DNA of 42,139 nt from Candidatus Doudnabacteria bacterium (GTDB lineage Bacteria > Patescibacteriota > Doudnabacteria > UBA920 > 2-01-FULL-46-14), in assembly GCA_041497195.1 (NCBI GenBank), contig JBGQGB010000002.1:1-42139 (forward strand). The letters run 5' to 3'. The notes under the pieces were generated by a model. That model worked only from the letters and a program-made list of their open reading frames with translations. It was not told the origin of the DNA and ran no database searches. The position numbers and the translations under genes are program-made. Below, in pieces: positions 7,511-22,775 of the stretch (position 1 is its first letter; each line of letters opens with the position of its first letter).

Positions 7511-7548
7511 GCCGTTGTAGCTCAGCTGGTAGAGCAACTCCATGGTAA
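7511..7548 (+). pseudogene. Orphan copy of the 5' half of tRNA-Thr(GGU)
   Basis: 38 nt identical to the 5' exon at 7672-7707 plus the AA that starts the 3' exon; no acceptor 3' strand follows. Confidence 0.85.
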
Positions 7549-7671
7549 TAAACAGGTCTACTGTCATTATCAGGAAATGCTTGTAGCGACTGGCTAAAAT
7601 GGCGATAGAGTGAGAGATGGGGCCACCTCTCACAGAAAACAGGTCGCCGGTTCTTTGGAAAAATCATATAT

Positions 7672-7938
7672 GCCGTTGTAGCTCAGCTGGTAGAGCAACT
7701 CCATGGTGGGGCATAAGCTCCCTGCCCATTGCCGGAGAAATCCGACAGTGAATCCCGAATTACGGTCAAAGGCTCGAAAGAGTTAAGACCGTGGCGAGCA
7801 ATCGCCCGAACGACTGACAAGGGTGGCTAAATCCGAAAGGATACGCCAAAGATACAGTCTAATCCCCATATAAGTTTTACGAAATTGGGGTGCAAATGAA
7901 GGAGTAGGTCGTCGGTTCAATTCCGACCAACGGCTCCA
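7672..7938 (+). tRNA. tRNA-Thr(GGU), exons 7672-7707 and 7899-7938, interrupted by a group I intron; CCA encoded
   Basis: Joined exons give a full cloverleaf: GCCGTTG/CAACGGC acceptor, GCTC/GAGC D stem, ACTCC-ATGGTAA-GGAGT anticodon arm, GTCGG-TTCAATT-CCGAC T arm, U discriminator, CCA. Confidence 0.93.
7708..7898 (+). ncRNA. Group I intron (191 nt) at tRNA position 36/37
   Basis: 5' exon ends in U and the intron ends in G. P1 has U7707-G7724 wobble; P7 GACTG/CAGTC; S-like AAGATACAGTCT; GAAA/GCAA tetraloop hairpins; P9 CCCCA/TGGGG. Confidence 0.88.
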
Positions 7939-7985
7939 GGCTTTGGCAGGCGGGGCAACTCTCCGCCAGAGGCGGATCAGCTTAA
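7939..7985. repeat. REP-like palindrome after tRNA-Thr
   Basis: Contains TCCGCCAGAGGCGGA and shares CCGCCAGAG with the element at 7492-7500. Confidence 0.55.
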
Positions 7986-8006
7986 CTAAATAATCAAGGA
8001 ATCAAA

Positions 8007-8165
8007 ATGGCGCAAGAGAATTTGGTAAAGATGCAATGCACGGTCTGCAAGCGAATCAATTACTATACGACCAGAAATAAAAAATCTACGCCCGAGGCGC
8101 TGGAACTCAAAAAGTTTTGCAAATGGGATCGCAAAAAGACAGTGCATAAGGAAATGAAGAAGTAA
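8007..8165 (+). CDS. rpmG: 50S ribosomal protein L33 (52 aa; too short for the ORF track)
   Basis: MAQENLVKMQCTVCKRINYYTTRNKKSTPEALELKKFCKWDRKKTVHKEMKK; SD AAGGA upstream. Confidence 0.95.
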   Translation: MAQENLVKMQCTVCKRINYYTTRNKKSTPEALELKKFCKWDRKKTVHKEMKK

Positions 8166-8169
8166 AAAG

Positions 8170-8190
8170 ATCCCGCTCGCGCGGGATTTT
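8170..8190 (+). terminator. rpmG terminator
   Basis: ATCCCGC-tcgc-GCGGGAT followed by T run. Confidence 0.8.
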
Positions 8191-8202
8191 GATTTGCGAA
8201 GC

Positions 8203-8249
8203 AGCCAGCCCTATTTTTTTATTCAAATTTTATCTTCACGATATCTGGG
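8203..8249. repeat. Direct repeat copy A (metallophosphoesterase 3'-end-like)
   Basis: 42/47 identical, ungapped, to 8957-9003; 8217-8249 is 29/33 identical to 10995-11027. Confidence 0.9.
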
Positions 8250-8258
8250 ATTTTGTCC

Positions 8259-8287
8259 TTGATATCCAAAACGATTTCTGATACGCT
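8259..8287 (+). promoter_or_regulatory. Promoter of the 174-aa orphan gene
   Basis: TTGATA, 17 nt, TGaTACGCT. Confidence 0.6.
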
Positions 8288-8374
8288 GGACTGTCAGTTC
8301 ATGCTGACGATGTCCGAGCCTACAAGGGGAGGACATAGCTCCAAAAACCTATAAGGTGAATAGGAGGAAAAAAT

Positions 8375-8899
8375 ATGAAGGCGAGAGTCGCGAGGTTGTA
8401 TTTCCGCAGACATCCATGGCTGGGTGATTTATTTCGGGAATGGGGCTACGAATTTCGAGATAGTTGGCTGCAGGAGCGGCTGCACTTCATTGCGTTTAAG
8501 CCGTTCCGGTCTCTCGACTTGGATGCGTCTTTTCCCACAGAGGAAAACCGGTGTTGTCTCCATCACGGCGGACCCCTCGAAAGTTCGATGCATGCGTTTG
8601 TTATGTTCCACTATGTGGGGCCGCCGACAGAGGCACCTTGGGATCGGGCCACGAAACCCTTTTTTAAGCACCTCGGTCGTGTACGTGAGGGTCGCCCCCT
8701 GATCCAGGAGCTCAGGAGTATTTGCAATCAGCGTAGCAGTGATGATTATGCGCTGAGACCAGACGCAATTGTGGTGCGGTTTCAACTGAAGAGCGCCCAC
8801 CTCGGGATTTTAAATGCCGCTGTTGAAGTCTATCTGATTCCCGAGTCGTGGGAGCCACCTGTCGCTCCCGCGAAATCAAAGCGAGCAAAAAAGCCTTAG
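8375..8899 (+). CDS. Hypothetical protein (174 aa)
   Basis: Strong SD AGGAGG, own promoter and terminator; no recognised motif. Confidence 0.8.
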   Translation: MKARVARLYFRRHPWLGDLFREWGYEFRDSWLQERLHFIAFKPFRSLDLDASFPTEENRCCLHHGGPLESSMHAFVMFHYVGPPTEAPWDRATKPFFKHLGRVREGRPLIQELRSICNQRSSDDYALRPDAIVVRFQLKSAHLGILNAAVEVYLIPESWEPPVAPAKSKRAKKP

Positions 8900-8934
8900 C
8901 CAGGAGAAAGGCCTCTTGCGAATGCTTGTTTTGA

Positions 8935-8974
8935 AGGGTCGGTCTGCCTCACGGCAAGCCGGCCCTATTTTTTT
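8935..8974 (+). terminator. Terminator of the 174-aa gene; right arm lies inside repeat copy B
   Basis: AGGGTCGG..TGCC-tcac-GGCA..CCGGCCCT followed by a 7-T run. Confidence 0.8.
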
Positions 8975-9006
8975 GCTCAAATTTTATCTTCACGATCTCC
9001 GGGCGG
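8957..9006. repeat. Direct repeat copy B
   Basis: 8971-9006 is 32/36 identical to 10995-11030 (3' end of the metallophosphoesterase gene). Confidence 0.9.
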
Positions 9007-9027
9007 GTTTAAAATGCCCAAGCAAAT

Positions 9028-9588
9028 TTAGTTCTTTAGATATTCATTTTTTAAGAACTCAGTGAAGTCATCCATTTCTTTTTTGTATAGCAGCCGCCTC
9101 TCATTTCTCGTTTCTTCCGGAAGGTCGGGCAGTACCTCGAGCCCGTTGCTTTGAATACGGAAGCCGTATGCAATGTTATCGAATCCAAGCATTGCGTCGT
9201 AAGGGACTTTTCTGTCGTTGACGCGATAAAATTGATCTAAAAGTCTTATTGATTTGAGTCGTAATTCTCGTCCTTCTTTGTCCACTTTTTCCCGAAGCTC
9301 GTCATTATACTGCCACTTTTCGACATCCGGTTCTTCTGGGTACACTTCGACCCAAGGGGCGAGCGTTTGTTCCTCCAAGACCCTATCAGTCTCGGAATGT
9401 CCTTCGCAGGATTGCCTGGTGCGCAGTCCGTGAGCGTTAAACATTATGACTGCTTCTTTGATGCCCGGTTCAATAGGTCTGCCTGTCGCGTCAGTAATTT
9501 GGTCGATCTCCTTTCGGATTTCCTGAAGGTGATGCTCTTTGGCTGGCCTTCCTTGATCTCCGTGCAGTTCGTCAGAATTTGATGCCAT
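9028..9588 (-). CDS. Hypothetical protein with an N-x2-G-x2-T-x2-SCEGH motif
   Basis: 186-aa ORF coupled 5 nt downstream of the 442-aa ORF. Confidence 0.8.
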   Translation of the reverse strand: MASNSDELHGDQGRPAKEHHLQEIRKEIDQITDATGRPIEPGIKEAVIMFNAHGLRTRQSCEGHSETDRVLEEQTLAPWVEVYPEEPDVEKWQYNDELREKVDKEGRELRLKSIRLLDQFYRVNDRKVPYDAMLGFDNIAYGFRIQSNGLEVLPDLPEETRNERRLLYKKEMDDFTEFLKNEYLKN

Positions 9589-9593
9589 AGATT

Positions 9594-10922
9594 TTAGAGC
9601 TTAGATCTTAGATAGCCCAAAAGGTCTCCCATAACGCGTTCTTCAGATGGCCATCCTGTAACACTACCTGAAACTAATAATAGTCTAGTATTTATAGTAT
9701 TTAATAATATTTTTTTTTCTCGATCAGTGAGCGCTTGAAGAATCTGTTTGTCTGCTATAGTCGAGTGTACAAAGGCATCTTTGTCAGGGTTAGCTTTCAT
9801 TGCTTGAGTCATTAAATTTTCGTACTCTTTTTTGAGGTTTTTAAGTCTCTGAAGAAATCTATCTCCATCAGGATAAAGCATCCTAAAAGCGTCTAGGATG
9901 GCTGCTGTATTTTTTTGTTGGGTTTCCTGGTCTTTGCGGTTATCTCTGCGACCTTCTTCAATGTAGGGGGCATTCAGAATTTGATCGACGGCTTCTCTAG
10001 CGCTGTTTTTATTTCCTCGTTCGTTTAGCTTGGCCCGAATGTTATTGAGCTCGTTTTGGTTATTCTTTTGGTTTCTCGCGACCACTGCTTCTTTTGTAAA
10101 TTTTTTGGTTACCAAATTCCTAAGCGAGGCATCCAGATTCCTTTTGTCACCGGTTCGGCTGAATTGGGTGCCGATTGTTCTCAATTCACCAGTCAAGAAA
10201 TGCATTTCTTGTTCCGACATATTTCCGACACGTCGCAGCAGCTCCTGTCGAGAAGGAACATCTTCGGGGACGCCAGCAAGCGAATACAATTTTTCCAGAG
10301 AGCTAGTCGTCGATGAGCGACCCTGCATCTCTTGTTCACGAGCCCGTTGTCCAGTAGAAGTCCGTTCCGCCCTTGCTTGTTTCTCCATAAACAAAGCGTC
10401 TCTTATGGCTCGGCGCTCATCCCAGGATTGCTTGATTTCCGGTGTAAGGTTCCTTTGCGAGGTGGCGCGTGTTTGCAATAAGCCTTCCACGTATTTTAGT
10501 GTTTTTTCAATGCCCTGCATTCCCTCCTGCCCTGGTTGGTTCATCTGCAGAATTGTGCTTTGAATTTCCAAAGCATCCCGTCTATCACTATGATCTCCAA
10601 GAGATCCCAGTTCTTCCGCGTTTCGATTTAGGGTAGCCTGAGATTCTTGAAAAGACAGAGGCTCCCTGCCCGTCCTTTGGTTTTCCAGTCCATTAGCTTG
10701 GGTGGCTACATAGCGTAGCTCGTCATTCCAGTTTCCTGGCTGTTCCAAAAGCTGCTGGCCTTTGTGATAGTTTTCTTGAGCAAATTCCGTACCTGCGCGG
10801 ATATAAGTATCATAAAACGCAGATCGCCCCATTGAAGCGCTTCTATCGGCAATTTCATACATTTTTCTAGCTACTTCCTGGGATTGATTTTGTGTGGTTT
10901 CTTGGCTTTCGACGTATGGCAT
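9594..10922 (-). CDS. Hypothetical charged, helical protein (442 aa)
   Basis: Long ORF rich in E/Q/R/K, no TM; TATAAT on the minus strand just upstream. Confidence 0.82.
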   Translation of the reverse strand: MPYVESQETTQNQSQEVARKMYEIADRSASMGRSAFYDTYIRAGTEFAQENYHKGQQLLEQPGNWNDELRYVATQANGLENQRTGREPLSFQESQATLNRNAEELGSLGDHSDRRDALEIQSTILQMNQPGQEGMQGIEKTLKYVEGLLQTRATSQRNLTPEIKQSWDERRAIRDALFMEKQARAERTSTGQRAREQEMQGRSSTTSSLEKLYSLAGVPEDVPSRQELLRRVGNMSEQEMHFLTGELRTIGTQFSRTGDKRNLDASLRNLVTKKFTKEAVVARNQKNNQNELNNIRAKLNERGNKNSAREAVDQILNAPYIEEGRRDNRKDQETQQKNTAAILDAFRMLYPDGDRFLQRLKNLKKEYENLMTQAMKANPDKDAFVHSTIADKQILQALTDREKKILLNTINTRLLLVSGSVTGWPSEERVMGDLLGYLRSKL

Positions 10923-10996
10923 CGGAGAAAGTTTACGCTGCTTTTTGCGAGTTTATTATAACCTAGTAAAATAAAGACCGCCATTCTCAGGCAGTT

Positions 10997-12169
10997 TTAT
11001 TCAAATTGTATCTTCACAATCTCCGGGCGGTTGCCGACGCGCATCAGCGGGCCCCAGGTACCGACACCATTGGTCGTGTAGATGGTCAAACGGCCTGATT
11101 TGTTGAGCCCGTAGTGAAAACGTCCGTAAATCAGGCGACTGACGTAATTAAAAGGAAAAATTTGCCCTTTGTGCGTATGACCAGAGAGCATCAGAGAAAC
11201 TCCCGCCTGTTCAATTTCTTTTATATTTACTGGCGCGTGAAACAGTAAGATGCTCGGCTTGTTGCGGGCAAAAGCGAGATGAGCCAGCACATCGCTTATT
11301 TTGCCAAATTTTTCGCTCATTCGGTAGTCGAGGCCCATAATCTGCATGCCCTGGACCTCGATAAAGCTATCCCGCAAGATGTTGACCCCGATTTTTGTGA
11401 GAGCATCGGTGACGAGCTGGTCGTTGCCGACAAATTCGTCGTGATTGCCGAACGCGAAGTGAATTCCCATACTCGGCTGGAGTTTTGCCAATGGGGACAC
11501 GCCATCCACAAAATCCATGGTGGGCCCGTCAAAAACATCCCCGGCGATAAAGATGACGTCTGGGTTGAGCGCGGCCGTTGTTTCGACAATTTTTCGCATG
11601 AATTTTTTTCCGTGAATCAGGCCCAGGTGAGAGTCTGCAAAAAGTACGGCGGTTTTATGCTGCCAGGCGGGCGGGAGATTTTCGAGTTTGATGCTCAATT
11701 CCCTGATGGCCGGTCTTCGCCCATTCCACAGGCCATAGCCACAAACGATAATCGCGATCGCGAATACGGTTTGATGAACGATTGCTCCTGCTTGGGGGTT
11801 GAGGGGAGCGCCCTGGAGGATATAGATAATCCAGGACAGAAATGAGGCAAAGAACAAATAGGTGATGATCCCGAGCCAGAAGGACGATACTGAATAAAAA
11901 AACCGAAGTGTAGAATTGTTTCGGCTTCGGGAAAGAAATGAGGTCAAAATAAACATCACGGGTAGGACCGCGAAAATAGGCAGGGCCGCGTCTAAAAGAT
12001 ACGGTTCAGGAAGAACCCCAAAGTACGCGACAGTGTGGTAAACGAAGTAGGTCGCCAACCCGAGAACAAGTGAAAAAACCAGGAGGAAAATTATGAAAGC
12101 GATGCGCACGGGAACTCTTGGGATTAATTGCAAACCGAGCTTGTTTTGAATTATATCGAAAATAGGCAA
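10997..12169 (-). CDS. Membrane-anchored metallophosphoesterase (YkuE-like)
   Basis: ADSHLG, AGDVFD, GNHD, LLFHAP, SGHTHKGQ calcineurin-like motifs; N-terminal TM helices. Its last codons are repeat copy C (10995-11030). Confidence 0.93.
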   Translation of the reverse strand: MPIFDIIQNKLGLQLIPRVPVRIAFIIFLLVFSLVLGLATYFVYHTVAYFGVLPEPYLLDAALPIFAVLPVMFILTSFLSRSRNNSTLRFFYSVSSFWLGIITYLFFASFLSWIIYILQGAPLNPQAGAIVHQTVFAIAIIVCGYGLWNGRRPAIRELSIKLENLPPAWQHKTAVLFADSHLGLIHGKKFMRKIVETTAALNPDVIFIAGDVFDGPTMDFVDGVSPLAKLQPSMGIHFAFGNHDEFVGNDQLVTDALTKIGVNILRDSFIEVQGMQIMGLDYRMSEKFGKISDVLAHLAFARNKPSILLFHAPVNIKEIEQAGVSLMLSGHTHKGQIFPFNYVSRLIYGRFHYGLNKSGRLTIYTTNGVGTWGPLMRVGNRPEIVKIQFE

Positions 12170-12297
12170 AAATTGGAACTACCAGGCTGGTAAGAACCTG
12201 GATAGTTTTGCGTCAGTATAGTCAAGATTGCGTTCATTCCAGAGCTGCCTCTTTGTGATTTTACTGACATCCGATATAATGGATTGAGAATAGACAC

Positions 12298-12873
12298 ATG
12301 GCCCAAGCTTTAGAAAATTTTACTGATGAAGAATTAGTCAGCCAGGCTGGTTCTGGAGAAAGGGAAGCCTTGGAGGTTTTGATTCGCCGTTATTTATGGC
12401 CGGTTTTTCACTTTGTCTATAAGATTTTGAGGACCAAGGAAGAGGCTGAAGACGTGTCCCAGGAAGTTTTTGTCAAAGTCTGGCGCAACTTGGCTAAATT
12501 TGACCACAATTTGCGTTTTGAACCATGGCTCTTTCGGATTGCAAGAAATACGGCTCTCGACAGGCTCAAAAAGAAACAGAGTATTCCTTTTTCCGCCTAT
12601 GATACGGATGACCAGGAAAATTGGTTGGCAGAGACTCTAGTGAGTCTTGAGCCAACGCCCGAGGAAGCGGTTGACAGCTCTGCGGCGAAGGGGGTGCTGG
12701 ATGCTGCTTTGGAAAAACTGTCTCCTCATCAGCGACAGGTGGTTCGGATGCGTCATTTTGAGCAGTTAAGCTTTCGGGAGATAGCAGCCAGCCTCGCTGA
12801 GCCGACAAATACGGTCAAGAGCCGGTACCGCAGGGCCCTTCAGCAACTGCGCAAGATATTGCCGGATTTTTAG
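12298..12873 (+). CDS. ECF (sigma70 group 4) sigma factor
   Basis: AEDVSQEVFVKVW, WLFRIARN region 2; LSFREIA...NTVKSRYRRA region 4. Confidence 0.95.
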   Translation: MAQALENFTDEELVSQAGSGEREALEVLIRRYLWPVFHFVYKILRTKEEAEDVSQEVFVKVWRNLAKFDHNLRFEPWLFRIARNTALDRLKKKQSIPFSAYDTDDQENWLAETLVSLEPTPEEAVDSSAAKGVLDAALEKLSPHQRQVVRMRHFEQLSFREIAASLAEPTNTVKSRYRRALQQLRKILPDF

Positions 12874-12880
12874 GTAATTT

Positions 12881-12909
12881 TGCACCAAAAATAGCAAACT
12901 CCTCGTATT
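12881..12909 (+). promoter_or_regulatory. Putative ECF-dependent promoter
   Basis: TGCACC, 17 nt, CGTATT between the sigma and anti-sigma genes; resembles SigW-type TGAAAC-N16/17-CGTA. Confidence 0.5.
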
Positions 12910-12934
12910 AACTACGGGGGGTTATGTTTTTTGT

Positions 12935-13363
12935 ATGAGTCAAAATACTAGCCAGCTGAACCACAATGCCAACTTTTTGCCAGAACCGTCGCCGGACCTT
13001 TTCCGCAAGGTCATGCTTCGTGTTGCGCGCGAGCAGCGGGTTTTGATGCTCAAAAAATTATTTTTGTTTGTTTTTTGTTTTGCCGGTTCCGTGGCGCTGA
13101 CTATTCCGGCGTGGCGAACTCTTCAAGGGGAACTCAGCCGTTCGGGATTCTGGCAATATTTGACTATCGCCCTGTCTGATTTGCACGTAGCTTCTCAATA
13201 TTGGCAGGATTTTACCTGGTCGCTTTTGGAGTCTTTGCCAGCTATCAGCGCAGCCGCGTTGTTGGCGGCATTTGCGGTTTCGCTGATTTCGCTGAAGTTC
13301 ATCATCCGTTATTCGAAATTTATTTTTGGCAACCCGCAAATTTTGCGCACGCAGCGCCATTAA
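12935..13363 (+). CDS. Probable membrane anti-sigma factor
   Basis: Follows the ECF gene; PEPSPDLFRKVM N-terminus and 2-3 TM segments. Function inferred from position. Confidence 0.6.
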   Translation: MSQNTSQLNHNANFLPEPSPDLFRKVMLRVAREQRVLMLKKLFLFVFCFAGSVALTIPAWRTLQGELSRSGFWQYLTIALSDLHVASQYWQDFTWSLLESLPAISAAALLAAFAVSLISLKFIIRYSKFIFGNPQILRTQRH

Positions 13364-13366
13364 GAT

Positions 13367-13864
13367 ATGGATTTAAATAAATTTTTTCAGTCCAGAATTT
13401 TTTCCAGCACGCTGGTGGTCGTGTCAGCAGTTATAGTTTTGCTTTTGGTCTTTGCGCTCGGCGCTTTCGTCGGTTTTCAGAAAGCAAGGTTTTCTTTCGG
13501 CTGGGGGGAAAACTACCATCGCGTTTTCGGTGGTCCCAGAGGGGGATTTTTACCTAATTTTGTCGGCGACGATTTCATAAACGGGCATGGCACTTTCGGC
13601 ACCATCATCAAGCTTGAACCAGGCTTGCTTGTCGTGAAGGGCCAGGATGGCGTGGAAAAAGCCTTTAGCATTGGCGATGACACGACTATCGAGAAAGGGC
13701 GCACTGTTTTGACAAGTAACGATTTGAAAGTCGACGAGCAGGTCGTAGTGATTGGCTCGCCTAAGACAGACGGCTCGATTGAGGCTAAATTAGTAAGGGT
13801 ATTTGATCGGTCGGACAGTAGATCAGCAGTGCCCTTGGGTCTTCCCCCTGTTGGGCCGAAATAG
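13367..13864 (+). CDS. Membrane-anchored protein with a DUF5666-like beta domain
   Basis: One TM; GTIIKL...LVVKG...DDTTI...VVVIGSPKTDGSIEAKLVRV pattern. Confidence 0.65.
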   Translation: MDLNKFFQSRIFSSTLVVVSAVIVLLLVFALGAFVGFQKARFSFGWGENYHRVFGGPRGGFLPNFVGDDFINGHGTFGTIIKLEPGLLVVKGQDGVEKAFSIGDDTTIEKGRTVLTSNDLKVDEQVVVIGSPKTDGSIEAKLVRVFDRSDSRSAVPLGLPPVGPK

Positions 13865-13873
13865 TCTCAAATT

Positions 13874-15655
13874 ATGAAAAAGTTTTTTCAGTATATACTG
13901 CGGCACAAAATCGCTTCTGTAATAATTCTAATCTTGGCTGCGACAGCTGGATATTATCTGTACAAATCAGTCGCACCGAAAGGCGCCGCTGTTCGCTATG
14001 TCACGGGCCAAGTGCAAAAAGGGACGATTGTGGTCTCTCTCAGCGGCACCGGCCAGGTTTCCGCATCGAACCAGTTGGACCTCAAACCAAAAGCCTCCGG
14101 GGACGTTACTTACGTAGGCGTGAGGGCCGGCCAACCAGTCAAAGCGGGAACTTTGATTGCTCAGTTTGATTCGACCGCAGCCCAAAAGTCAGTCAGAGAC
14201 GCACAAGCCAACGTGCAGAGCGCAAAACTTTCCCTACAGAAGTTGCAACAGCCTCCGGCTTCGCTTTCTATCACGCAAGCGGAAGATGCCGTGGCGCGCG
14301 CGCAAGAGTCGAAACAAAACTCGGAAAATGGCCTGGTAAAAGCCTACCAAGACGGTTTCAATAACGTGGCAAACGCTTTCCTTGATTTGCCCACCATCAT
14401 GACGGGTTTACAAAATATTCTTTATTCAAGCAGCCCGGGTTTGGGCGGGGGTAATCAAACCAATATCAATTATTACGGCGACGTGGCTACGCAATATGAT
14501 AGTCGGGGAAAACCATACCGCAACGACGCGGATCAAAAGTATCAGTCCGCCCTGAGCGCGTACAATCAAACCTTTGATGACTACAAAGCTGCGAGTAGGA
14601 CCTCGCCTACCAGCACGGTAGAGTCCCTCATTGATGAGACTTACCATACGACCAAGAGCATCGCCGAGTCGGTCAAAAGCGTAAACAATTTGATTCAATT
14701 GTACAAAGACGTCCTGACCAAGCAAAATCTCTCCCCGGCGTCGCTTGCTAGCACGCATCTGGACAGCCTCAATACCTACGTGGGAGAGACAAATACTCAT
14801 CTCACTAATCTCCTTTCATCTCAAACGACTATTCAGAGCGACAAGACGGGGATAGTCGATTCCCAAAGAACGATTAACGAAGATACCCAGTCGCTAGCTA
14901 GTCTCCAGGCTGGGCCTAATGCGATCGACCTGCAATCAGCGCAATTGTCCCTGCAGCAGAAAGAAAACGCACTTTTGGACGCTCAGCAAACGCTGGCGGA
15001 CTATTCGGTTTACGTTCCTTTTGACGGGACGGTTGCCAAAGTCAATGTCAAAAAAGGGGATACCGCCAGCAGCGGGACCGCAGTCGCCACTCTCATCACG
15101 AATCAGCAACTGGCAACGATTTCGCTCAATGAAGTGGATGTCGCAAAAGTGAAGCTCGGCCAGAAAGCCACTTTGAGTTTTGACGCGATTGATGGATTGA
15201 CCATCACCGGGGAAGTTGCGGAAATTGATCCTATCGGGACAGTCTCCCAAGGGGTAGTCAACTACAGCGTACAAATCGGTTTTGATACCCAAGACGACAG
15301 GGTCAAATCCGGTATGAGTGTTTCGGCGGCCATAATCACGGAGGCCAAACAGGATGTTTTGACCGTGGCGAATTCTGCCGTCAAATCAGACAATATCGGT
15401 ACTTACGTGCAAATTTTGGACGCCCGCGGGCAGCCTCAGAATCAAACGGTCCAAGTTGGCATATCCAATGACACCCTTACGGAAATCACCAGCGGTTTGC
15501 AGGAAGGGCAGAGTGTCATTACCCAAACAATTAATACTAGCAGCAGCAGCGCCACAACCGGCACGACTCAACGCAGTACCGGAGGGCTTGGGATACCAGG
15601 CTTAGGCGGCGGCGGGGCTGGCGGGGGCGCTATTAGAAGGGCAGCGGGGGATTGA
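13874..15655 (+). CDS. MacA/HlyD-like periplasmic adaptor with a long helical insertion
   Basis: SGDVTYVGVRAGQPVKAG and PFDGTVAKVNVKKGD lipoyl halves; Gly-rich C-terminus. Confidence 0.9.
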   Translation: MKKFFQYILRHKIASVIILILAATAGYYLYKSVAPKGAAVRYVTGQVQKGTIVVSLSGTGQVSASNQLDLKPKASGDVTYVGVRAGQPVKAGTLIAQFDSTAAQKSVRDAQANVQSAKLSLQKLQQPPASLSITQAEDAVARAQESKQNSENGLVKAYQDGFNNVANAFLDLPTIMTGLQNILYSSSPGLGGGNQTNINYYGDVATQYDSRGKPYRNDADQKYQSALSAYNQTFDDYKAASRTSPTSTVESLIDETYHTTKSIAESVKSVNNLIQLYKDVLTKQNLSPASLASTHLDSLNTYVGETNTHLTNLLSSQTTIQSDKTGIVDSQRTINEDTQSLASLQAGPNAIDLQSAQLSLQQKENALLDAQQTLADYSVYVPFDGTVAKVNVKKGDTASSGTAVATLITNQQLATISLNEVDVAKVKLGQKATLSFDAIDGLTITGEVAEIDPIGTVSQGVVNYSVQIGFDTQDDRVKSGMSVSAAIITEAKQDVLTVANSAVKSDNIGTYVQILDARGQPQNQTVQVGISNDTLTEITSGLQEGQSVITQTINTSSSSATTGTTQRSTGGLGIPGLGGGGAGGGAIRRAAGD

Positions 15656-15656
15656 A

Positions 15657-16376
15657 ATGATTGAATGTCAGCACATAAATAAATCTTATTTTAACGGCGG
15701 CATCGAAACCAAGGTTTTACAGGATATATCTTTTACGATAAGCGAAGGAGAATTTGTGGCTATCACCGGCCCATCTGGTTCGGGCAAATCCACGTTGATG
15801 CATATTTTGGGGGCCTTGGATACGCCGACTTCCGGTAAATATATTTTGGATGGAAAAGACGTTTCCACGCTTTCTGACGACGAACTGGCCGATATCCGAA
15901 AAGAAAAAATTGGTTTTGTGTTTCAATCCTTCAATCTGCTGCCGCGCGCCAGTGTTTTGCGAAACATCGCTTTGCCCCTAGTCTATGCCGAAATGGATCG
16001 CACTCGTCGTGAAGAAATAGCCAAACAGGCTGCTGTGCAAGCAGGGTTGGATGAGACCCGATTTCACTATTTGTCCAATCAGCTGTCCGGCGGCCAGATG
16101 CAGCGCGTCGCTATTGCCCGTGCGCTCGTGAATAATCCCCATTTGCTTTTGGCAGACGAACCGACTGGCAATCTGGATACTAAAACCGGGGATATTGTAC
16201 TGGCTACGTTTCAAAGTCTTAATATTCAAGGCCGTACGATCATATTAATAACGCATGAGCCATACGTCGCTGAACACGCTGATAGGATTATCCGGATAAA
16301 AGACGGGAGGATTTTGGACGACGTGAAAAATCGCGCGAAAAAGCTCAGAGTGGACTACCAAACCCATGAAGGTTAG
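15657..16376 (+). CDS. ABC transporter ATP-binding subunit (MacB/LolD type)
   Basis: [37 protein letters not shown]. Confidence 0.96.
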
Positions 16377-17589
16377 AGATTTATTTGAAGAAACCTACAG
16401 TGCTCTGACTGTCAACAAAGTCCGATCCAGCTTGACTATGCTAGGTATCGTTATCGGCATCAGTTCCGTGATCGCCTTGGTTGCGATCGGGCAAGGAGCA
16501 CAAGGCTCGATTCAATCCCGGATCCAGTCGCTGGGGTCGAATCTGATCATTGTCTCCCCGGGAGCCCAACGCGGGCCGGGAGCGTTTGTCAGTGCCGGAA
16601 GAGGGTCGTCTCAGACCTTGACGCTAGAGGATGAGCAGGCACTTGAAAAAAATATTACCTTGGCCATGGCAATTGATCCAGAGGTGTCGCGCAGGTTTCA
16701 AATCACCGCCAAAGGGACAAATACCAACACCCAAGTCATCGGGACCAATTACAACTATACTACGGTGCGAAATGTCAGTGTTGATGAAGGTTCTTTTATT
16801 ACGGATCCGCAAGTGCAAAATTCAGCCAAGGTTGCAGTCCTGGGACCCACCACGCGAGATGATTTGTTTGGGGCAGGAGCCAGTGCCATCGGGCAGACTA
16901 TCAGGGTAAGCGGAGTCGAATTTAAAGTAATTGGAATTACGAAGTCAAAAGGGGGCACTGGTTTTTTCAATCAAGACGACGTCATTTTTGTTCCTTTATC
17001 AACCGCGCAGCATTATTTGGCTGGCGGTAATTACCTCACGGGTATTAGCATCCAGGCCAGCAGTCCGGATGTAATGACTACTATCCAGCAACAGGTCACT
17101 GATTTATTGTTGCAGCGCCATAAGATTGGCGACTCGACGCAGGCGGATTTTAGCGTGACCAACCAGGCGGACATTGTGGCTTCGGCATCGAGTGTTACCA
17201 ACACCTTCACCACCCTGCTCGCTTCAATTGCGGGAATCTCACTCCTGGTCGGAGGGATTGGCATCATGAACATGATGCTCACGACCGTCACTGAACGTAC
17301 TCGCGAAATCGGCCTCAGGAAAGCCATCGGGGCTACGAGAAAGGACATCAATGCGCAGTTTTTGATGGAAGCACTGATGCTGACCTTTATCGGTGGGATA
17401 ATTGGGATAGTACTCGGGTGGGGGGTGTCTCTCTTGGTTGCCAAGTTTGCCAGCACTCCGACGCAGATGTCCATATCCTCGGTTCTGTTGGCTTTTGGCG
17501 TTTCCGCCGCCATCGGCTTGGTGTTTGGCTATTATCCGGCGCGGCGGGCGTCGAGGCTGAATCCGATTGAAGCCTTGAGATTTGAATAA
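16366..17589 (+). CDS. ABC transporter permease (MacB/FtsX type)
   Basis: RSSLTMLGIVIG, GGIGIMNMMLTTVTERTREIGLRKAIGA, YYPARRASRLNPIEALR. Confidence 0.95.
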   Translation: MKVRDLFEETYSALTVNKVRSSLTMLGIVIGISSVIALVAIGQGAQGSIQSRIQSLGSNLIIVSPGAQRGPGAFVSAGRGSSQTLTLEDEQALEKNITLAMAIDPEVSRRFQITAKGTNTNTQVIGTNYNYTTVRNVSVDEGSFITDPQVQNSAKVAVLGPTTRDDLFGAGASAIGQTIRVSGVEFKVIGITKSKGGTGFFNQDDVIFVPLSTAQHYLAGGNYLTGISIQASSPDVMTTIQQQVTDLLLQRHKIGDSTQADFSVTNQADIVASASSVTNTFTTLLASIAGISLLVGGIGIMNMMLTTVTERTREIGLRKAIGATRKDINAQFLMEALMLTFIGGIIGIVLGWGVSLLVAKFASTPTQMSISSVLLAFGVSAAIGLVFGYYPARRASRLNPIEALRFE

Positions 17590-17632
17590 ACTTAATCACT
17601 ATAATTAATCTTAACAAGTTAAGGAGATAAAT

Positions 17633-18070
17633 ATGAAAAAGTCTATTTTGATAACTGTTGTAGTCGCGCTTATTGCAGCGGGTGTTGGCTTTTACGGCGG
17701 CATGTTGTATCAGCAGAAAAAGGACGTCTCGCAGCGGGGGCAGCGTGCTGCGCAGTTTGGGTTCGGTGCTGGCGGGCCGGGCGGCACTGGAACCAGAAGA
17801 GGAGCTGGCAATGGAGCGGGTGGTTTTGTGTCGGGGCAAATCATTTCCCAGGACAGCCAGGGTATCACTGTCAAATCCAATGACGGCAGCTCGAAAATTG
17901 TTCTCGTTTCCGGCAGCGCGCAAATCAGCAAGTTTGATCCGGGTACCAGTACAGATCTGCAGATCGGCAAGGATGTGACAGTTATGGGCACTACAAATTC
18001 GGACGGGAGCGTGACCGCGCAGAATATCCAGATTCGTCCCAATCCGCCGGCGCAACCGCAGCAGCAATAG
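17633..18070 (+). CDS. Membrane-anchored Gly-rich DUF5666-like protein
   Basis: SD AAGGAG; TM, Gly-rich linker, SGQIISQDSQGITVK...DGSVTAQNIQI. Confidence 0.75.
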   Translation: MKKSILITVVVALIAAGVGFYGGMLYQQKKDVSQRGQRAAQFGFGAGGPGGTGTRRGAGNGAGGFVSGQIISQDSQGITVKSNDGSSKIVLVSGSAQISKFDPGTSTDLQIGKDVTVMGTTNSDGSVTAQNIQIRPNPPAQPQQQ

Positions 18071-18092
18071 TAGGGAAGTTTCTTTGGATTTT

Positions 18093-18120
18093 TAAAAACG
18101 GGGTGAAGACCCCGTTTTTA
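18093..18120 (+). terminator. Terminator of the ECF/MacAB operon
   Basis: TAAAAACGGGG-tgaaga-CCCCGTTTTTA. Confidence 0.85.
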
Positions 18121-18244
18121 GTTTTGGCAGAGGCAAACGGGAATGGAGCTTGCTGCCGCTTGTTCAAACACGCCGGCACTTTTGTTTGAACGAACTTGTA
18201 AACCATGCCCAAAGTTGATACTCTTATTTGAGTAAAGTTTCAAC

Positions 18245-19774
18245 ATGGAACAGCAACAATACGAAGTCAGCTCCAAGCCAGGACGGCTCATTCTCGCGGC
18301 CACGATTATCGCCAGCGGCATGGCGTTTTTGGAAGGAACGGCTGTAAATTTGGCTGTCCCTCCGATTCAGCTGGCCTTTGGGGCCAGCCTCACCCAAATC
18401 CAATGGGTGATAAATTCGTTTGCCCTGACCCTGGCCGCTTTTCTTTTGATCAGCGGTTCGCTCTCGGACCGGTTTGGCCGCAAAAAGATTTTCACCTGGG
18501 GGATTGTCCTGTTTGTCATTTCCTCGCTCGCCTGCGGGTTGGCCAGAAATATTACAGTTCTGATTGCTTTTCGGGCGCTCCAAGGGTTGGCGGGAGCCAT
18601 GATGATTCCCGGCAGCTTGACCATTATCAGACTGGCGTTTAAATCCTCTGACCAAGGGCGCGCGATCGGGCTGTGGTCCGGCCTGTCCGGAGGCGTGGCG
18701 GCTTTGGGCCCGTTCATCGGCGGAGCCCTGATCCAGGTGTTCGGCTGGCCGTCGGTGTTCTATCTGAATCTTCCGCTCGGGATTCTGGCTTTTTTCCTGA
18801 CGATTTATTACGTCCCTGAAAGTCGAAATACAGAAGCGACCAAACTTGATTGGTGGGGGACCACTCTCATCACCCTGAGTTTGTTTGGTCTCTCTTACGG
18901 CCTCATCAACGCGCCGCTTTTTGGTTGGCACAACTATTTGGTGCTGTCGAGTTTCATCGGAGGTCTGGTCCTGCTGGTTTTGTTTGTAGTTGTGGAACTG
19001 AAGACCGAGCAGCCGCTGGTGCCGCTGAAAATTTTTCATTCGTCCCTGGTCAGTGGCGCCAATTTGGTCACCCTGCTTCTGTATTTTGCCTTGTATGGCA
19101 TGATTTTTTTCGTGGCCCTCAATCTCGAGCAGGCGCAAGGGCTGAGTCCGTTTCAGGCCGGACTGGGCTTGTTGCCCGCCATAGTTTTGATAACTTTTCT
19201 GTCCGGGCCGGCGGGCCGCTTGGCCGACCGGATTGGTTCCAGAAAGCCGATGATTTGGGGACCCTTGATCGTATGTGCGGGGATGGCGCTTTTGGCGACC
19301 CCGGGAGTGCATGCAAATTATTTTCTTTATTTTATGCCAGGACTGATCCTCTTTGGCGGGGGCATGGCGCTCCTCATCCCCGCCTTGGTCAAATGCGCTC
19401 TGGCCGTGGATGAAAAATATTCCGGCTCGGCGTCCGGGGTGAACAACGCCGTTTCCCGGGTCGCCGCCCTTTTGGCCGTGGCAGTGCTGGGCGTAGTGGC
19501 GCTATCCCTTTTTTCCGGGAAGCTGCACCGAGCCGTGGCTGCCTCACCCGAGCTCAGTATCGCACAGAAGACTATTGTTCTTGACCAAACAAACAAACTA
19601 GGCGGCATCGTCTTGCCGAATGATTTTGCCCCGGGTGCCAGACTCACCGCTGACCACATCATCAAGCAGTCTCTAGTCTCGAGTTTCCGCCAGGTCATGA
19701 TTATCAATGCCATCCTGGCCTTTTGCAGTGCGGTCATCGCGTATTTTTTGATCAAGGACCGTGAGGCCAGCTAA
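18245..19774 (+). CDS. MFS drug:H+ antiporter, 14-TM (EmrB/QacA family)
   Basis: GSLSDRFGRKKIF motif A, FRALQGLAGA, GPFIGG, WPSVFYLNLPLG. Confidence 0.93.
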   Translation: MEQQQYEVSSKPGRLILAATIIASGMAFLEGTAVNLAVPPIQLAFGASLTQIQWVINSFALTLAAFLLISGSLSDRFGRKKIFTWGIVLFVISSLACGLARNITVLIAFRALQGLAGAMMIPGSLTIIRLAFKSSDQGRAIGLWSGLSGGVAALGPFIGGALIQVFGWPSVFYLNLPLGILAFFLTIYYVPESRNTEATKLDWWGTTLITLSLFGLSYGLINAPLFGWHNYLVLSSFIGGLVLLVLFVVVELKTEQPLVPLKIFHSSLVSGANLVTLLLYFALYGMIFFVALNLEQAQGLSPFQAGLGLLPAIVLITFLSGPAGRLADRIGSRKPMIWGPLIVCAGMALLATPGVHANYFLYFMPGLILFGGGMALLIPALVKCALAVDEKYSGSASGVNNAVSRVAALLAVAVLGVVALSLFSGKLHRAVAASPELSIAQKTIVLDQTNKLGGIVLPNDFAPGARLTADHIIKQSLVSSFRQVMIINAILAFCSAVIAYFLIKDREAS

Positions 19775-19811
19775 CTCAGAGCCGTATTGGTTGTTTCCAA
19801 TCAGGGCAAAT

Positions 19812-19845
19812 AAAAACCCCCCCCGATTCACCGGGGGAGTTTTTT
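19812..19845. terminator. Bidirectional terminator between the MFS and cold-shock genes
   Basis: A-run + C-run / G-run + T-run inverted repeat. Confidence 0.75.
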
Positions 19846-19852
19846 CAAGATC

Positions 19853-20050
19853 TTAAACGCGTTGTACGTTTTTTGCGTTCATTCCCTTAGCTGACTCTTC
19901 TGTCTCGAAGGTAACCTTGTCACCTTCTTTGAGCTCGTCGAAAGTAACACCAACGAGAGAGTTGCTATGGAAGAACAAATCTTTTGACTGACCATCTGGG
20001 GTGATGAACCCAAAACCCTTGTCAGTTTTCTTTTTCACTACGCCGTCCAT
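19853..20050 (-). CDS. Cold-shock domain protein
   Basis: KGFGFI (RNP1) and LFFH (RNP2); 65 aa. Confidence 0.96.
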   Translation of the reverse strand: MDGVVKKKTDKGFGFITPDGQSKDLFFHSNSLVGVTFDELKEGDKVTFETEESAKGMNAKNVQRV

Positions 20051-20140
20051 AGATATATATTATTAATGAATGAAATTTGCAAATTTAAATTTATTTATGA
20101 AACTCGACGATTTTTCTAAAGATAAATATTTTGCAAAGCA

Positions 20141-20169
20141 ATCATAGCAGGTCTAGAAAATAAAGTCAA
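20141..20169 (-). promoter_or_regulatory. Promoter of the cold-shock gene with a long AT-rich leader
   Basis: Minus strand TTGACT, 17 nt, TGcTATGAT. Confidence 0.75.
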
Positions 20170-20324
20170 AAAATAGGACTGCGTAAGAAAAACAGGCAAA
20201 CGTTGGCGAAGGATGGCAGGAGCATCGTAGAGGACGTTAGAATCGTGATTCAGAGGCAAACCAGTATATTTATATACTAGATTTAACTCAACAGGCTTGG
20301 TTTAGCAAATTAGAGCAAAAAAAA

Positions 20325-20361
20325 GCGGGGCGACTGCCTGTGATAGCACAGTCGCTCCCGC
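20325..20361 (-). terminator. Terminator of the Ala-rich membrane protein gene
   Basis: GCGGGGCGACTG...CAGTCGCTCCCGC stem preceded on + by an A run. Confidence 0.8.
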
Positions 20362-20374
20362 CCGCAGATGGAAT

Positions 20375-20833
20375 TCAGCTTACCTGGAGCTCGTGGTTAG
20401 AAGTTTTGCTTGAGAACCAATAGAGCAGGAACAGGACCGCTGCTCCGGGGAAAACCCACCACCACAGGTGCGTAAGGCAAACGTAGACAGCCAGCCCCTC
20501 CACGACCAGGACAGCCATGGCCCGCCAATAAGACACCAGCAATTTCTCGGTGAACGCGGCGGCGAAGGTGGCGAGGGTGAGGGCGGCGACGATGCCGAAA
20601 GTGGTGAGGGTGGCGGTGAACGCGGCGGCGGCGACGACGATGGCGACGATGCCGAGGGGGAGACGGACAGCTTTGAAAGCGGCGTCGGCGAAGGAGACGA
20701 CGGCGACGTAGGCGGCGGTGAAGATGACGCCGAGAATTGCGTACCGAGGGTCAACCCCCAGATGCAGAGCACCTCGATGCACCGTCACTACTAGTGCAAA
20801 CAACGCAACTGCAGACCCAGTAAGTTTTTTCAT
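20375..20833 (-). CDS. Ala/Val-rich polytopic membrane protein, unknown function
   Basis: SD GGAGG upstream; about 5 hydrophobic segments; GC-rich, repetitive codons. Confidence 0.78.
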   Translation of the reverse strand: MKKLTGSAVALFALVVTVHRGALHLGVDPRYAILGVIFTAAYVAVVSFADAAFKAVRLPLGIVAIVVAAAAFTATLTTFGIVAALTLATFAAAFTEKLLVSYWRAMAVLVVEGLAVYVCLTHLWWWVFPGAAVLFLLYWFSSKTSNHELQVS

Positions 20834-20954
20834 AGATTCCTCCTACTGCAACAAACAGCCTATGATAGCACAAACCATTTCGACTGTGAATGGGGAGCCT
20901 CTTGCGCAACAAAAAAACCGCCTCTGGGGCGATTGAATATTTCGAGGAATGCAA

Positions 20955-20983
20955 TTGACATGGAAAACAAATTAGGCTACTAT
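20955..20983 (+). promoter_or_regulatory. Promoter of the 113-aa/76-aa gene pair
   Basis: TTGACA, 17 nt, TACTAT; SD AAGGAGG before ATG 21007. Confidence 0.8.
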
Positions 20984-21006
20984 TACGAATTGTTTAAGGA
21001 GGATCG

Positions 21007-21348
21007 ATGTCTAAAAAATCGAAAGAGAAAGATCAGTCCAGGCGCGAATATGCTGCCACGCATGCTCAAGAAGTAAGCGCTGCTATAGTTTCCGCCTTGT
21101 ATACGCCAAAAGAAGCCCTGGCAATCAGTCCCTCAAACAGAACCTGGCTCGAGGTAATCAGAAATGTTGCCGCCCGTTTGGGCAAGGTCTCCTTCAGGAA
21201 AATTCTCGAGATACAAGAAGCTGACGATCACAAGAACTTCAAGCTGTCAGATATGGACGGCGCAAACGTGAAGATAGCTCTTCAACAGGAAAACCCGAAT
21301 ATTTCTACTTACCCCTCTTTGGAGGCGAGGCATTTCTCAAGCATATGA
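21007..21348 (+). CDS. Hypothetical protein (113 aa)
   Basis: Promoter and strong SD; no motif recognised. Confidence 0.75.
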   Translation: MSKKSKEKDQSRREYAATHAQEVSAAIVSALYTPKEALAISPSNRTWLEVIRNVAARLGKVSFRKILEIQEADDHKNFKLSDMDGANVKIALQQENPNISTYPSLEARHFSSI

Positions 21349-21575
21349 CCCGCTGTCCTTATTGTCTGGCTCTTCTGAGCTCCGAAGAAGCTGCCGAGGA
21401 GCCTACCGAAGAAGACGAGGACGTTGCACAAGCGGCAAGTGCATTTGCTACAGATTTCGCAAGAATATCAACGGAAGAAATCGCCAAGGTGGGAATCCAG
21501 CGCACTGAAACAACGGAGGACACGCCAGAATTTAATACCATCCACGATGAGCTCAAAAAACCGAAATCAAACTAA
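21345..21575 (+). CDS. Hypothetical acidic protein with N-terminal CPYC (76 aa)
   Basis: ATGA overlap with the upstream stop; followed by hairpins. Confidence 0.6.
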   Translation: MTRCPYCLALLSSEEAAEEPTEEDEDVAQAASAFATDFARISTEEIAKVGIQRTETTEDTPEFNTIHDELKKPKSN

Positions 21576-21842
21576 CACCCACCCCCGCACAAGGTCACAC
21601 TGAACCAGTTTCAGTGGCGGTATACAAATGACCTTTTTGTTTTGTTCAAAAAATCGCCTGCTTGGCGATTTTGATCTGCAGGGGCTATGGGACGAGGTAA
21701 AATTTTTTTATCAAGAATCGAGAGTACACTCAAGAAACCAGAAGAAAATCAGAACCAGGGCCCCCTGCTAGTTGTACAATAAATAACATAAGGCGCTGGA
21801 TCAACTCCAACGCCTTATTGATTGCGATACACTACTATCCTT

Positions 21843-22538
21843 CTATTCTCCTCCGTGGTTGTGAGTTGTTAGATATGCATCGATCCGTGGACGAACGGCT
21901 TCTGCGAAGAAAAGCTGAAGAAACCGCAGGACTAGGGTCTCGATCTTTTGCTCTCCCAATCGGCCTTGACCCTGGGGGCAGCCTTCATCCAGATACCGTG
22001 ATCGAAGAAAACTCCAGGCAACATTGAAAAGACATTGCCTGATCTCCCCGTCGGCCCAATGGGAAAAACGATTATCGAGATGACCCATCTCCCGAGCGTC
22101 TTTAATAAGTTGGTCGACGACTCGAAATGTCTCTGACATCGCAGCAATTTTACGTCTTCCTTCTGGGCACGTCTCGATTATTCGTTCCCGCAACACGGCC
22201 TTCCCATATCCCAGGCCCTGCTCATCGTCAGTCCTAAAAACATCGAGTGTTGCCTCGAAGACGGACACAAGCTGGTCTATCGGGGATGCCATCCTGACAC
22301 TTCCAAGCGCATCTGCAACACGATCTCCGACTCTGTTGAGCAAGTCGTCGCAAATCTCATTGAAGATTGTGTCTAGTGTTGTTCGGTTTTTTGGTTTGGG
22401 GAAATGCGTGTAGACAACAGCAGGAGTGATACCCGCCTTCTTCGCTATGCAGTTAATCGTTACGCAAGCCAGGCCCCCCTTCGCTATGAGACTGGCAGCA
22501 GCAGCGAGAATTCTATTCTTAGTAACTATTGCTTTCAT
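21843..22538 (-). CDS. TetR/AcrR-family transcriptional regulator
   Basis: RILAAAASLIAKGG...TINCIAKKAGITPAVVYTHF HTH. Start moved to ATG 22538, which has an SD GGAGGG. Confidence 0.88.
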   Translation of the reverse strand: MKAIVTKNRILAAAASLIAKGGLACVTINCIAKKAGITPAVVYTHFPKPKNRTTLDTIFNEICDDLLNRVGDRVADALGSVRMASPIDQLVSVFEATLDVFRTDDEQGLGYGKAVLRERIIETCPEGRRKIAAMSETFRVVDQLIKDAREMGHLDNRFSHWADGEIRQCLFNVAWSFLRSRYLDEGCPQGQGRLGEQKIETLVLRFLQLFFAEAVRPRIDAYLTTHNHGGE

Positions 22539-22701: not shown

Positions 22702-22775
22702 TGGCAGGGGTGCAAGGAGTTGAACCCTGACTAACGGTTTTGGAGACCGTTGTGCTACCGCTACACCACACCCCC
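22702..22775 (-). tRNA. tRNA-Trp(CCA), CCA encoded
   Basis: GGGGGTG/CACCCCT acceptor, ACGGT-CTCCAAA-ACCGT anticodon arm, CAGGG-TTCAACT-CCTTG T arm. Confidence 0.96.

Follow-up and report, generated by a model that had tools for sequence, protein, structure and literature searches.

How do bacteria whose genomes are very small and in which few mobile elements have been recognised, such as those of the Candidate Phyla Radiation (CPR, or Patescibacteria), gain accessory genes? This is poorly understood, and a locus in a Candidatus Doudnabacteria genome points to a concrete route. The DNA analyzed here, called the window, is the stretch of 42,139 nucleotides at the start of contig JBGQGB010000002.1 (C2:1-42139) of assembly GCA_041497195.1, a CPR genome of 966 kb in 13 contigs that is 98.65% complete; the genomes of its relatives range from 0.6 to 1.8 Mb. 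In this window, the 3' end of a gene encoding a membrane metallophosphoesterase (MPE) occurs three times, and the copies bracket two small cassettes, A and B (Table 1). We consider it probable that the region from 8.2 to 11.0 kb is a tandem array of circular cassettes lacking a recombinase of their own, which were integrated in the Campbell manner at the MPE 3' end by an enzyme acting in trans. The route would be one in which tiny cassettes rebuild the end of their target, stack in tandem, pass between lineages and insert again elsewhere, and the locus supplies for it a defined attachment (att) sequence, a donor site and an empty site. The initial annotation of this DNA had listed three repeat pairs coinciding with terminator hairpins and had proposed that mini-cassettes enter at such hairpins. 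That idea is corrected here, as the terminators are neighbors of the event and not its demonstrated target.

The strongest of the three pairs is a 47-nt repeat (8203-8249 and 8957-9003) with 42/47 identical positions, a strength reached by none of the dinucleotide shuffles of window positions 7000-23000. A repeat finder added a third, partial copy at 10981-11027 (or to 11030), which is identical to copy 2 at 28 of 30 positions, and a pattern search across the entire 966-kb genome returned exactly three copies. On the minus strand, copy 3 forms the 3' terminus of the MPE open reading frame (ORF), which closes with ..RPEIVKIQFE (GNRPEIVKIQFE) and a stop codon at 10999-10997. MPE homologs from six other genera have similar C-termini (..PEIVVIRFE-stop, ..PEIILISFEE.. 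and ..SEIAVITFRKK-stop). Since this motif is kept across genera, copy 3 represents the ancestral coding sequence, and copies 1 and 2 derive from it. On the same strand, copy 2 reads stop-TRPEIVKIKFEQ.. and copy 1 reads ..IPDIVKIKFE-stop; neither falls within any ORF, and both are thus non-coding stubs of the end of MPE. Past the stop codon, copies 1 and 2 have a further 18 nt in common, namely an A-run plus GGGC(C/T)GGCT, and copies 2 and 3 share three extra bases (to 9006/11030), the CGC (Arg) codon that precedes CCG GAG. The similarity among the copies is sharply bounded, and the inserts A and B are unrelated to each other.

The claim that this repeat lies over a terminator arm was found to be true of one copy. 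Copy 2 spans the final 9 nt of the 3' arm and the T-run of the terminator of the 174-aa gene in cassette A (8936-8965, -24.3 kcal/mol, z -4.2), the arm at this copy being GGGCCGGCT. In copy 1, the arm sequence is present and its partner is absent, and folding gave no hairpin. DNA folds likewise revealed no hairpin in the core shared by the three copies or in the reconstructed cassette junction. As the MPE att core has no hairpin, the link to hairpins is either positional or kept by selection for termination, and the overlap with terminators is best explained as a positional by-product, not as a demonstrated recognition signal. A bidirectional terminator starts 15 nt beyond copy 1, behind rpmG, and probably served originally as the common terminator of rpmG and MPE, two convergent genes.

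Three trivial or known explanations were examined and rejected. Six other assemblies (two from JGI, one from NCBI and three from Logan) show the gene order rpmG-174-186-442-MPE at 100% identity, so the arrangement is not an assembly artefact; the copies, moreover, differ at 5/47 positions. The population is present in the JGI samples 3300052992 and 3300052987 and in SRR29604911, SRR35962460 and SRR35959925. A decayed tandem duplication of the MPE gene was ruled out, as the similarity stops at 9006/11030 and neither insert is similar to MPE or to the other insert. Finally, a Xer/dif site of the kind used by integrative mobile elements exploiting Xer (IMEX) was discarded: no dif-like inverted arms were seen on reading the sequence, the cumulative GC skew makes no turn inside the window, and the arrays in relatives are found at tRNA genes.

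Cassette A is convergent to cassette B and has its own Shine-Dalgarno (SD) sequence and terminator, and no promoter was predicted for its 174-aa gene. In cassette B, the terminator (10995-10977) now serves MPE, and the -10 box TATAAT lies at 10960-10955. Homologs were sought with the orphan proteins, concatenated as a query, against 146 genomes of the order. None was detected there for the 174-aa ORF or for the 113- and 76-aa ORFs found further along the window, and the 174-aa ORF also had 0 homologs among 5.8 billion proteins. The 186-aa protein has patchy homologs in 12/146 genomes, none of them in the window's own family, and the 442-aa protein gave one partial match and one weak match (E 1.5e-4). 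The cassette genes are thus accessory. None of the three cassette proteins matched Pfam, PHROG, PADLOC or NCBIfam, and the same searches found no integration or transfer gene and no recognisable nuclease in either cassette. The 186-aa family has the invariant residues D33, S60-C61-x-G63-H64 and E171-M172, from which the name SCEGH is used here. Its AlphaFold model is confident (pLDDT 88, pTM 0.84); Foldseek found no PDB match (best E 0.93), the BFVD database gave weak matches only, to uncharacterised phage proteins, and a profile search of PDB sequences gave nothing below E 0.05. The family adjoins tRNA genes in several genomes, and no viral contigs carrying it were found. A larger relative of A or B was not found among viral contigs (none), three genome contigs, or metagenome scans, which gave no close relative.

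Cassette B was also found in another organism. A 3.7-kb Logan contig (L024, from SRR22388145) encodes P0002, which is 89% identical to the 186-aa protein, and alignment of this contig to the genome by blastn and tblastx gave four blocks. L024:19-594 corresponds to the 509-aa gene 18245..19774 (74%), L024:739-1571 to the 442-aa gene (70%), L024:2366-2908 to window positions 9528-8986, i.e., the 186-aa gene and 42 nt past it (93.6%), and L024:2963-3740 to genes 17633..18070 and 16366..17589 (73%). In this relative, cassette B, with its TATAAT conserved, therefore sits between orthologs of 17633..18070 and 18245..19774, which are adjacent in the window. At its right end, L024 reads ...TAAATTTGCTCGGGTATTTTAAACCCGCCCGGAAATCGTGAAAAT and then CGCAACC..., so that the cassette ends ...CCCGGAAATCGTGAAAAT; at its left end, it reads ...GCGTCCGAT and then CAAATTTGAATACAAAAATGCC..., so that the cassette starts CAAATTTGAATAC.... 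When joined (CCCGGAAATCGTGAAAAT-CAAATTTGAATA), these ends restore the MPE gene end CCCGGAGATTGTGAAGATACAATTTGAATAA: the first half of the att sequence stands at the right end and the second half at the left end. The expectation that insertion boundaries coincide with the repeat was thus borne out, as the two cassette ends are the two halves of the repeat core.

The break in the att sequence falls within a 3-nt ATC microhomology, the target being otherwise non-homologous. The insertion point is 15 nt past a stop codon, at the edge of the small hairpin TTGCG-ATCGGA-CGCAA, and the crossover is ~25 nt from the terminator arm; no matching hairpins were found by folding the two cassette ends. Neither a nearby MPE gene nor a direct repeat is present in L024, which indicates that cassette B carries the att sequence as its own. 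From this arrangement, the cassette must presumably have passed through a form with joined ends and then been opened inside the att sequence. That the target was non-homologous and yet the circle was broken precisely in the att core speaks for a site-specific cut. The identity of 93.6% at the 186-aa end, against 73-74% in the flanking core genes, is evidence that at least this end of B was transferred horizontally. Judged by its sequence in the two organisms, cassette B is mobile, having reached a non-homologous site in a relative.

The array can be accounted for as follows. Each cassette would once have been circular, as suggested by the joined cassette ends, with an attP-like junction mimicking the last ~35-47 nt of MPE. 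The circle would be inserted by one reciprocal (Campbell-type) crossover with the gene end, which would rebuild a working end at MPE and displace the older end away from the gene as a stub. After two rounds, three copies would be present, of which copy 3 is functional and copies 2 and 1 are stubs, and the sequence beyond copy 1, with the bidirectional terminator of rpmG and MPE, would be the original downstream region. The recombination enzyme would act in trans, the candidates being four large serine recombinases and one tyrosine recombinase. The four are ORFs with a Resolvase domain and of large-serine-recombinase size (341-527 aa; C4:75274, C1:1075, C5:71947 and C5:75733); they lie mostly near contig ends, and two of them are paralogs sharing a 34-nt stretch. 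The tyrosine recombinase is the only PF00589 match in the genome (C1:174066), with none on C2. The integron-like tyrosine recombinase suggested by the initial annotation therefore has one potential counterpart, on another contig and untyped as to IntI, with none next to the array; no integron integrase was identified in the genome. The Y1 or RAYT enzyme of the HUH type that had also been suggested was not found (PF01797, 0 matches in the genome; the control search matched 6/14 reference genomes). In the relatives, the tyrosine recombinases map to other contigs or lie at a distance, and a G011 contig with a homolog of the 186-aa protein also carries a Resolvase fragment.

Several points weigh against this account. 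No recombinase is linked to any array, and the whole-genome pattern search found no fourth copy of the att core beside any recombinase of the genome. No empty MPE site was recovered; a search of metagenome contigs with MPE gave nothing. The repeats at different loci have no common motif, the evidence for mobility comes from one 3.7-kb contig of one relative, and the model leaves the origin of the first att mimic unexplained. In related searches, the 509-aa neighbor used as a query in metagenome contigs retrieved relatives at <=43% identity only, an exact-sequence look-up of MPE returned no record, and the MPE homologs in six other genera have no arrays alongside.

Similar units occur elsewhere in the genome, so the recurrence proposed by the initial annotation holds, with members that differ from those it listed. 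A scan of the genome with C-terminal peptides gave 9 downstream matches, roughly half of them paralogs or repeat proteins, against 2 upstream and 0 with reversed peptides. Together with self-BLAST, it yielded two clean additional stub cases. The last 8 codons and the stop of a 946-aa gene (C1:342121..344961) are duplicated 463 nt away (341662-341690 / 342125-342153), the copies bracketing a promoter, an SD, an 82-aa ORF and a terminator. The last 35 nt of the gene C7:20663..21145 are duplicated 462 nt away (21105-21139 / 21567-21601), on either side of an 81-aa ORF with a terminator and a promoter of consensus type (TTGACA/TATAAT). Both cassettes are ~0.46 kb long with an ORF of ~80 aa and are convergent to the host gene, and their stubs (C1:342125 and C7:21105) are purely coding ends. 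A perfect 55-nt direct repeat containing a full terminator (C7:4604-4658 / 5187-5241) brackets a two-gene module with its own promoter, which we read from the sequence as a HicB-like antitoxin and a HicA-like toxin; this repeat (55 nt, 100%) could reflect the assembler k-mer. Another stub candidate (C5:48149/49467) turned out to be a pair of paralogous small membrane-protein genes. All inserts lie between a gene end and its terminator or bring a copy of the terminator: convergent cassettes duplicate the host coding end only, and co-directional ones the gene or tRNA end plus the terminator.

In other genera, homologs of the 186-aa protein are also found within units bracketed by direct repeats, and in two genomes (G124 and G126) these are stacked at the 3' ends of tRNA-Trp and tRNA-Gln. 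In G124, three copies of the tRNA-Trp 3' end with its terminator (L032, G124:C56; 2963-3006, 3858-3897 and 4560-4603) bracket the homolog and a methyltransferase gene. In one of these copies, a compensatory change from T-A to C-G preserves the hairpin, suggesting that every copy functions as a terminator. The repeats in G126 start within the last 7 nt of tRNA-Gln. In a third genome (G123), a 43-nt copy of the tRNA-Trp-end type brackets a DUF2726-like gene (by reading), and a 39-nt terminator repeat (G123:234344/235389) surrounds a 264-aa gene. More examples adjoin tRNA-Gln, tRNA-His and tRNA-Trp. Across the order, both the 81-aa family and the DUF2726-like family are widespread and present in multiple copies. 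The broader claim that mini-cassettes enter between direct repeats is thus supported at the MPE array, by L024, and at further loci in the genome and in other genera. Separately, DUF2726-like genes, read as PD-(D/E)xK-type, were seen repeatedly in relatives beside tRNA-Gln, tRNA-His or tRNA-Trp, often with 20-70-nt direct repeats or tRNA stubs (L180, L181, L183-L186).

Might such units spread by homology alone? RecA-type recombination between the repeats would pop out a circle with a single repeat copy that, after DNA uptake, re-enters at a matching 30-55-nt segment. The cassettes have no recombinase, the repeats are wholly different between loci (gene ends, terminators, leaders), and lengths of 29-70 nt are near the minimum for homologous recombination. 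As the repeats share no motif, this route stays a serious rival, which we nonetheless regard as rather unlikely. A documented analog is provided by the promoter early stem-loop (PeSL) mini-circles of T4-type phages (PMC2839356). What it fits poorly is L024, where the site of cassette B shares ATC alone with the att sequence and where the circle was opened inside the att core, an outcome that a random break would produce in ~2% of cases for a 2-kb circle; it also leaves the first duplication unexplained. An improbable alternative is that larger islands or prophages were integrated serially at one site and then deleted, so that the cassettes are remnants and not self-moving units. Cis-mobilizable elements (CIMEs) are documented to have arisen by tandem accretion and subsequent decay (PMC5704250), large serine recombinase genes are present at contig ends of this genome, and most cassette proteins are of unknown function. 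Nevertheless, cassette B is bounded by the same two ends at different loci of two organisms, which indicates that the 2-kb unit itself moved, and the cassettes of 0.46-0.75 kb consist of exactly a promoter, an ORF and a terminator.

Entry directed by structure, with hairpins or terminators as targets in the manner of attC sites or HUH/RAYT substrates, was the mechanism put forward by the initial annotation, and we now find it very unlikely. It would agree with the repeats that span a whole terminator hairpin (tRNA-Trp in G123 and G124, G123:234344, tRNA-Gln in G139, and C7:4604), with the compensatory change that preserves the G124 hairpin, and with the position of the L024 insertion at the edge of a small hairpin, 15 nt past the stop. 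However, terminator function accounts for the conservation of the hairpins. The core common to the MPE copies and the L024 ends is the MPE coding end, which has no hairpin; copy 1 forms none, the stubs at C1:342125 and C7:21105 are purely coding, and the L024 crossover is off the terminator arm by the distance given above. In addition, the genome has no Y1/HUH enzyme and no integrase next to the examined arrays, and the cassettes, unlike those of integrons, have their own promoters (TATAAT in cassette B; none predicted for the 174-aa gene). Campbell-type integration with an enzyme in trans remains our preferred reading.

By analogy with described systems, we read the MPE array as a stack resembling CIMEs or the staphylococcal cassette chromosome (SCC), found in CPR and made of units of up to 2 kb. 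In Streptococcus thermophilus, CIMEs at the fda 3' end, of the family of the integrative and conjugative elements (ICEs) ICESt1 and ICESt3, are att-flanked and undergo tandem accretion (PMC5704250). As in CIMEs, the elements at MPE are bounded by att direct repeats, contain no integrase or transfer genes, and are stacked at the 3' end of an intact protein-coding gene, copy 3 completing the MPE ORF. CIMEs are mobilised by a recombinase in trans, and the same is proposed here. Unlike CIMEs, the units are of 0.46-2 kb with one or two genes, the host belongs to CPR, and no cognate ICE, integrative and mobilizable element (IME) or integrase was identified. SCC and pseudo-SCC elements of staphylococci are cassettes stacked at the 3' end of rlmH/orfX with short direct repeats containing the integration site, and some SCC-type cassettes have no large serine recombinase and depend on one in trans. 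The MPE array differs from these in that no Ccr-type gene is linked, the repeats are of 30-47 nt and include target coding sequence, and the cassettes are ten times smaller.

The PeSL cassettes and mini-circles of T4-type phages contain ORFans between repeated modules that include terminator stem-loops, and the circles arise by exchange between neighboring repeats (PMC2839356, PMC4122927). The modular shuffling of small accessory genes is similar. Here, in contrast, the setting is a bacterial chromosome, and the repeat at MPE is a coding end with a T-run and one hairpin arm, not a promoter-terminator module; a PeSL-like full-terminator repeat is found only at other pairs, such as C7:4604/5187 and G123:234344/235389. 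With integrons, the array shares cassettes of one or two genes and a boundary inside the site, which a circle would reconstitute. Unlike integrons, it has no adjoining IntI gene, folding of its att core gave no attC-like hairpin, and every site in the array is a copy of the targeted gene's end. Integron cassettes are mostly promoterless and use a common Pc promoter, whereas cassette B has its own TATAAT and cassette A its own SD and terminator. The array is also unlike HUH/Y1 elements (IS200/IS605, REP-RAYT), given the absence of a Y1/RAYT gene from the genome, the L024 ends without matching hairpins, and the duplication of 30-47 nt at MPE.

A more far-reaching possibility, to which we give little credence, is that CPR bacteria host undescribed, autonomous-looking mini-cassettes of 0.46-2 kb, made of a promoter, an ORF and a terminator, that carry a portable mimic of the 3' end of a host gene or tRNA and would move from locus to locus and lineage to lineage with no known recombinase. 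Their driver could be an unrecognised enzyme, for example the 186-aa SCEGH protein, for which a new fold was predicted with confidence. Alternatively, it could be a general mechanism acting at the interval between stop codon and terminator and making 29-55-nt duplications.

The other two repeat pairs reported at 20336/20858 (15 bp) and 20912/21648 (23 bp) are at the background level of the window and are not demonstrable repeats. The first extends to 20333-20350 and 20855-20872 with 16/18 identical positions, and the second has 18/23. At spacings of 200-1200 nt, the window holds 9 pairs of the first strength (~0.9 in dinucleotide shuffles) and 22 of the second (~3.9), in agreement with the earlier remark that these two cases are statistically weaker. 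Some of the background pairs fall within or beside core genes, among them the ribosomal-protein genes at 29.7-32.2 kb. The initial annotation had said that repeats flanking core genes equally often would count against its idea, and for these two cases pairs of equal strength do flank core genes. One copy of the 15-bp pair is in the loop of a terminator (-26.3 kcal/mol) and the other is the extended -10 box (TGcTATCAT) of the promoter of the 152-aa gene; we read their similarity as chance. Both copies of the 23-bp pair are real hairpins upon folding. Their match of 18/23 was reached by 0.1% of 3000 random pairs drawn from the 468 terminator-like hairpins detected in the genome, a rate that makes a common origin of the two hairpins possible but unproven. 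It had also been stated that all enclosed genes have their own promoter and SD: SDs were found in all three cases, and promoters were predicted in the 15-bp and 23-bp cases but not for the 174-aa gene.

These two pairs lie in a region that is accessory throughout, from tRNA-Trp (22702) to a cold-shock gene (20050). No homolog of the TetR gene or of the 113/76-aa ORFs was found in the family, and the 152-aa ORF has a single weak match in the order (E 5.9e-4). No repeated tRNA-Trp 3' end was found in the window. Because genus g10 has hot spots of cassettes at tRNA-Trp ends, the region 20050-22702 may be an old cassette stack with decayed att copies.

Table 1. Coordinates of the features discussed, in window positions
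Feature	Position	Strand	Remarks
rpmG (ribosomal protein L33)	8007..8165	+	52-aa ORF; Pfam Ribosomal_L33 on the identical gene in L042; conserved outer neighbor
Bidirectional terminator hairpin	8170..8187		Terminator scan; fold -17.6 kcal/mol; 33 nt beyond the copy 1 stop
att copy 1, outermost MPE-end stub	8203..8249	-	One hairpin arm only
Cassette A	8250..8956	+	SD, 174-aa ORFan 8375..8899, terminator hairpin 8936-8965; repeat spacing 754 bp
att copy 2, MPE-end stub	8957..9006	-	42/47 to copy 1, 28/30 to copy 3
Cassette B	9007..10980	-	Terminator, -10 box, 442-aa gene 9594..10922, 186-aa SCEGH gene 9028..9588
att copy 3, functional MPE 3' end	10981..11030	-	C-terminal motif conserved in six other genera
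MPE gene, target with triplicated 3' end	10997..12169	-	Pfam Metallophos 1.1e-9
Empty site, intergenic	18071..18244	+	Between 17633..18070 and 18245..19774, whose orthologs enclose cassette B in L024
Terminator of the 152-aa gene	20325..20361	-	Loop holds one copy of the 15-bp repeat; other copy (20855-20872) in the -10 region
Hairpin 1 of the 23-bp pair	20912..20934	-	Terminator upstream of the promoter of the 152-aa gene
Hairpin 2 of the 23-bp pair	21648..21670		Bidirectional terminator after the 113-aa/76-aa ORF pair (21007..21575)
tRNA-Trp	22702..22775	-	2.6 kb downstream: TetR, 113/76-aa and 152-aa ORFs

Some further observations were made in and around the window. Two other assemblies of the same population (L043 and L044) are 100% identical to the window from 2922 onward; upstream of ~2922 they have a different sequence encoding a TPR protein, which points to a structural variant or a mis-join. 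Both contigs stop at window positions 10931-10938, slightly inside cassette B. Upstream of rpmG, a tRNA-Thr(GGU) gene (7668-7940) is split after the anticodon by an intron-like insert of ~190 nt and was reported neither by ARAGORN nor by Rfam at the gathering threshold; a duplicate of its 40-nt 5' half is found 161 nt upstream of the full gene, at 7507-7546. Lastly, a (TAAGT)n-like spacer rich in stops, which occur in three frames (e.g., GTGAGTAAGTAAATAAGTTGTAAGT), recurs between consecutive genes and just ahead of terminators (C3:33631-33668, 35023-35060 and 37949-37975; C7:4580-4625 and 5160-5210).

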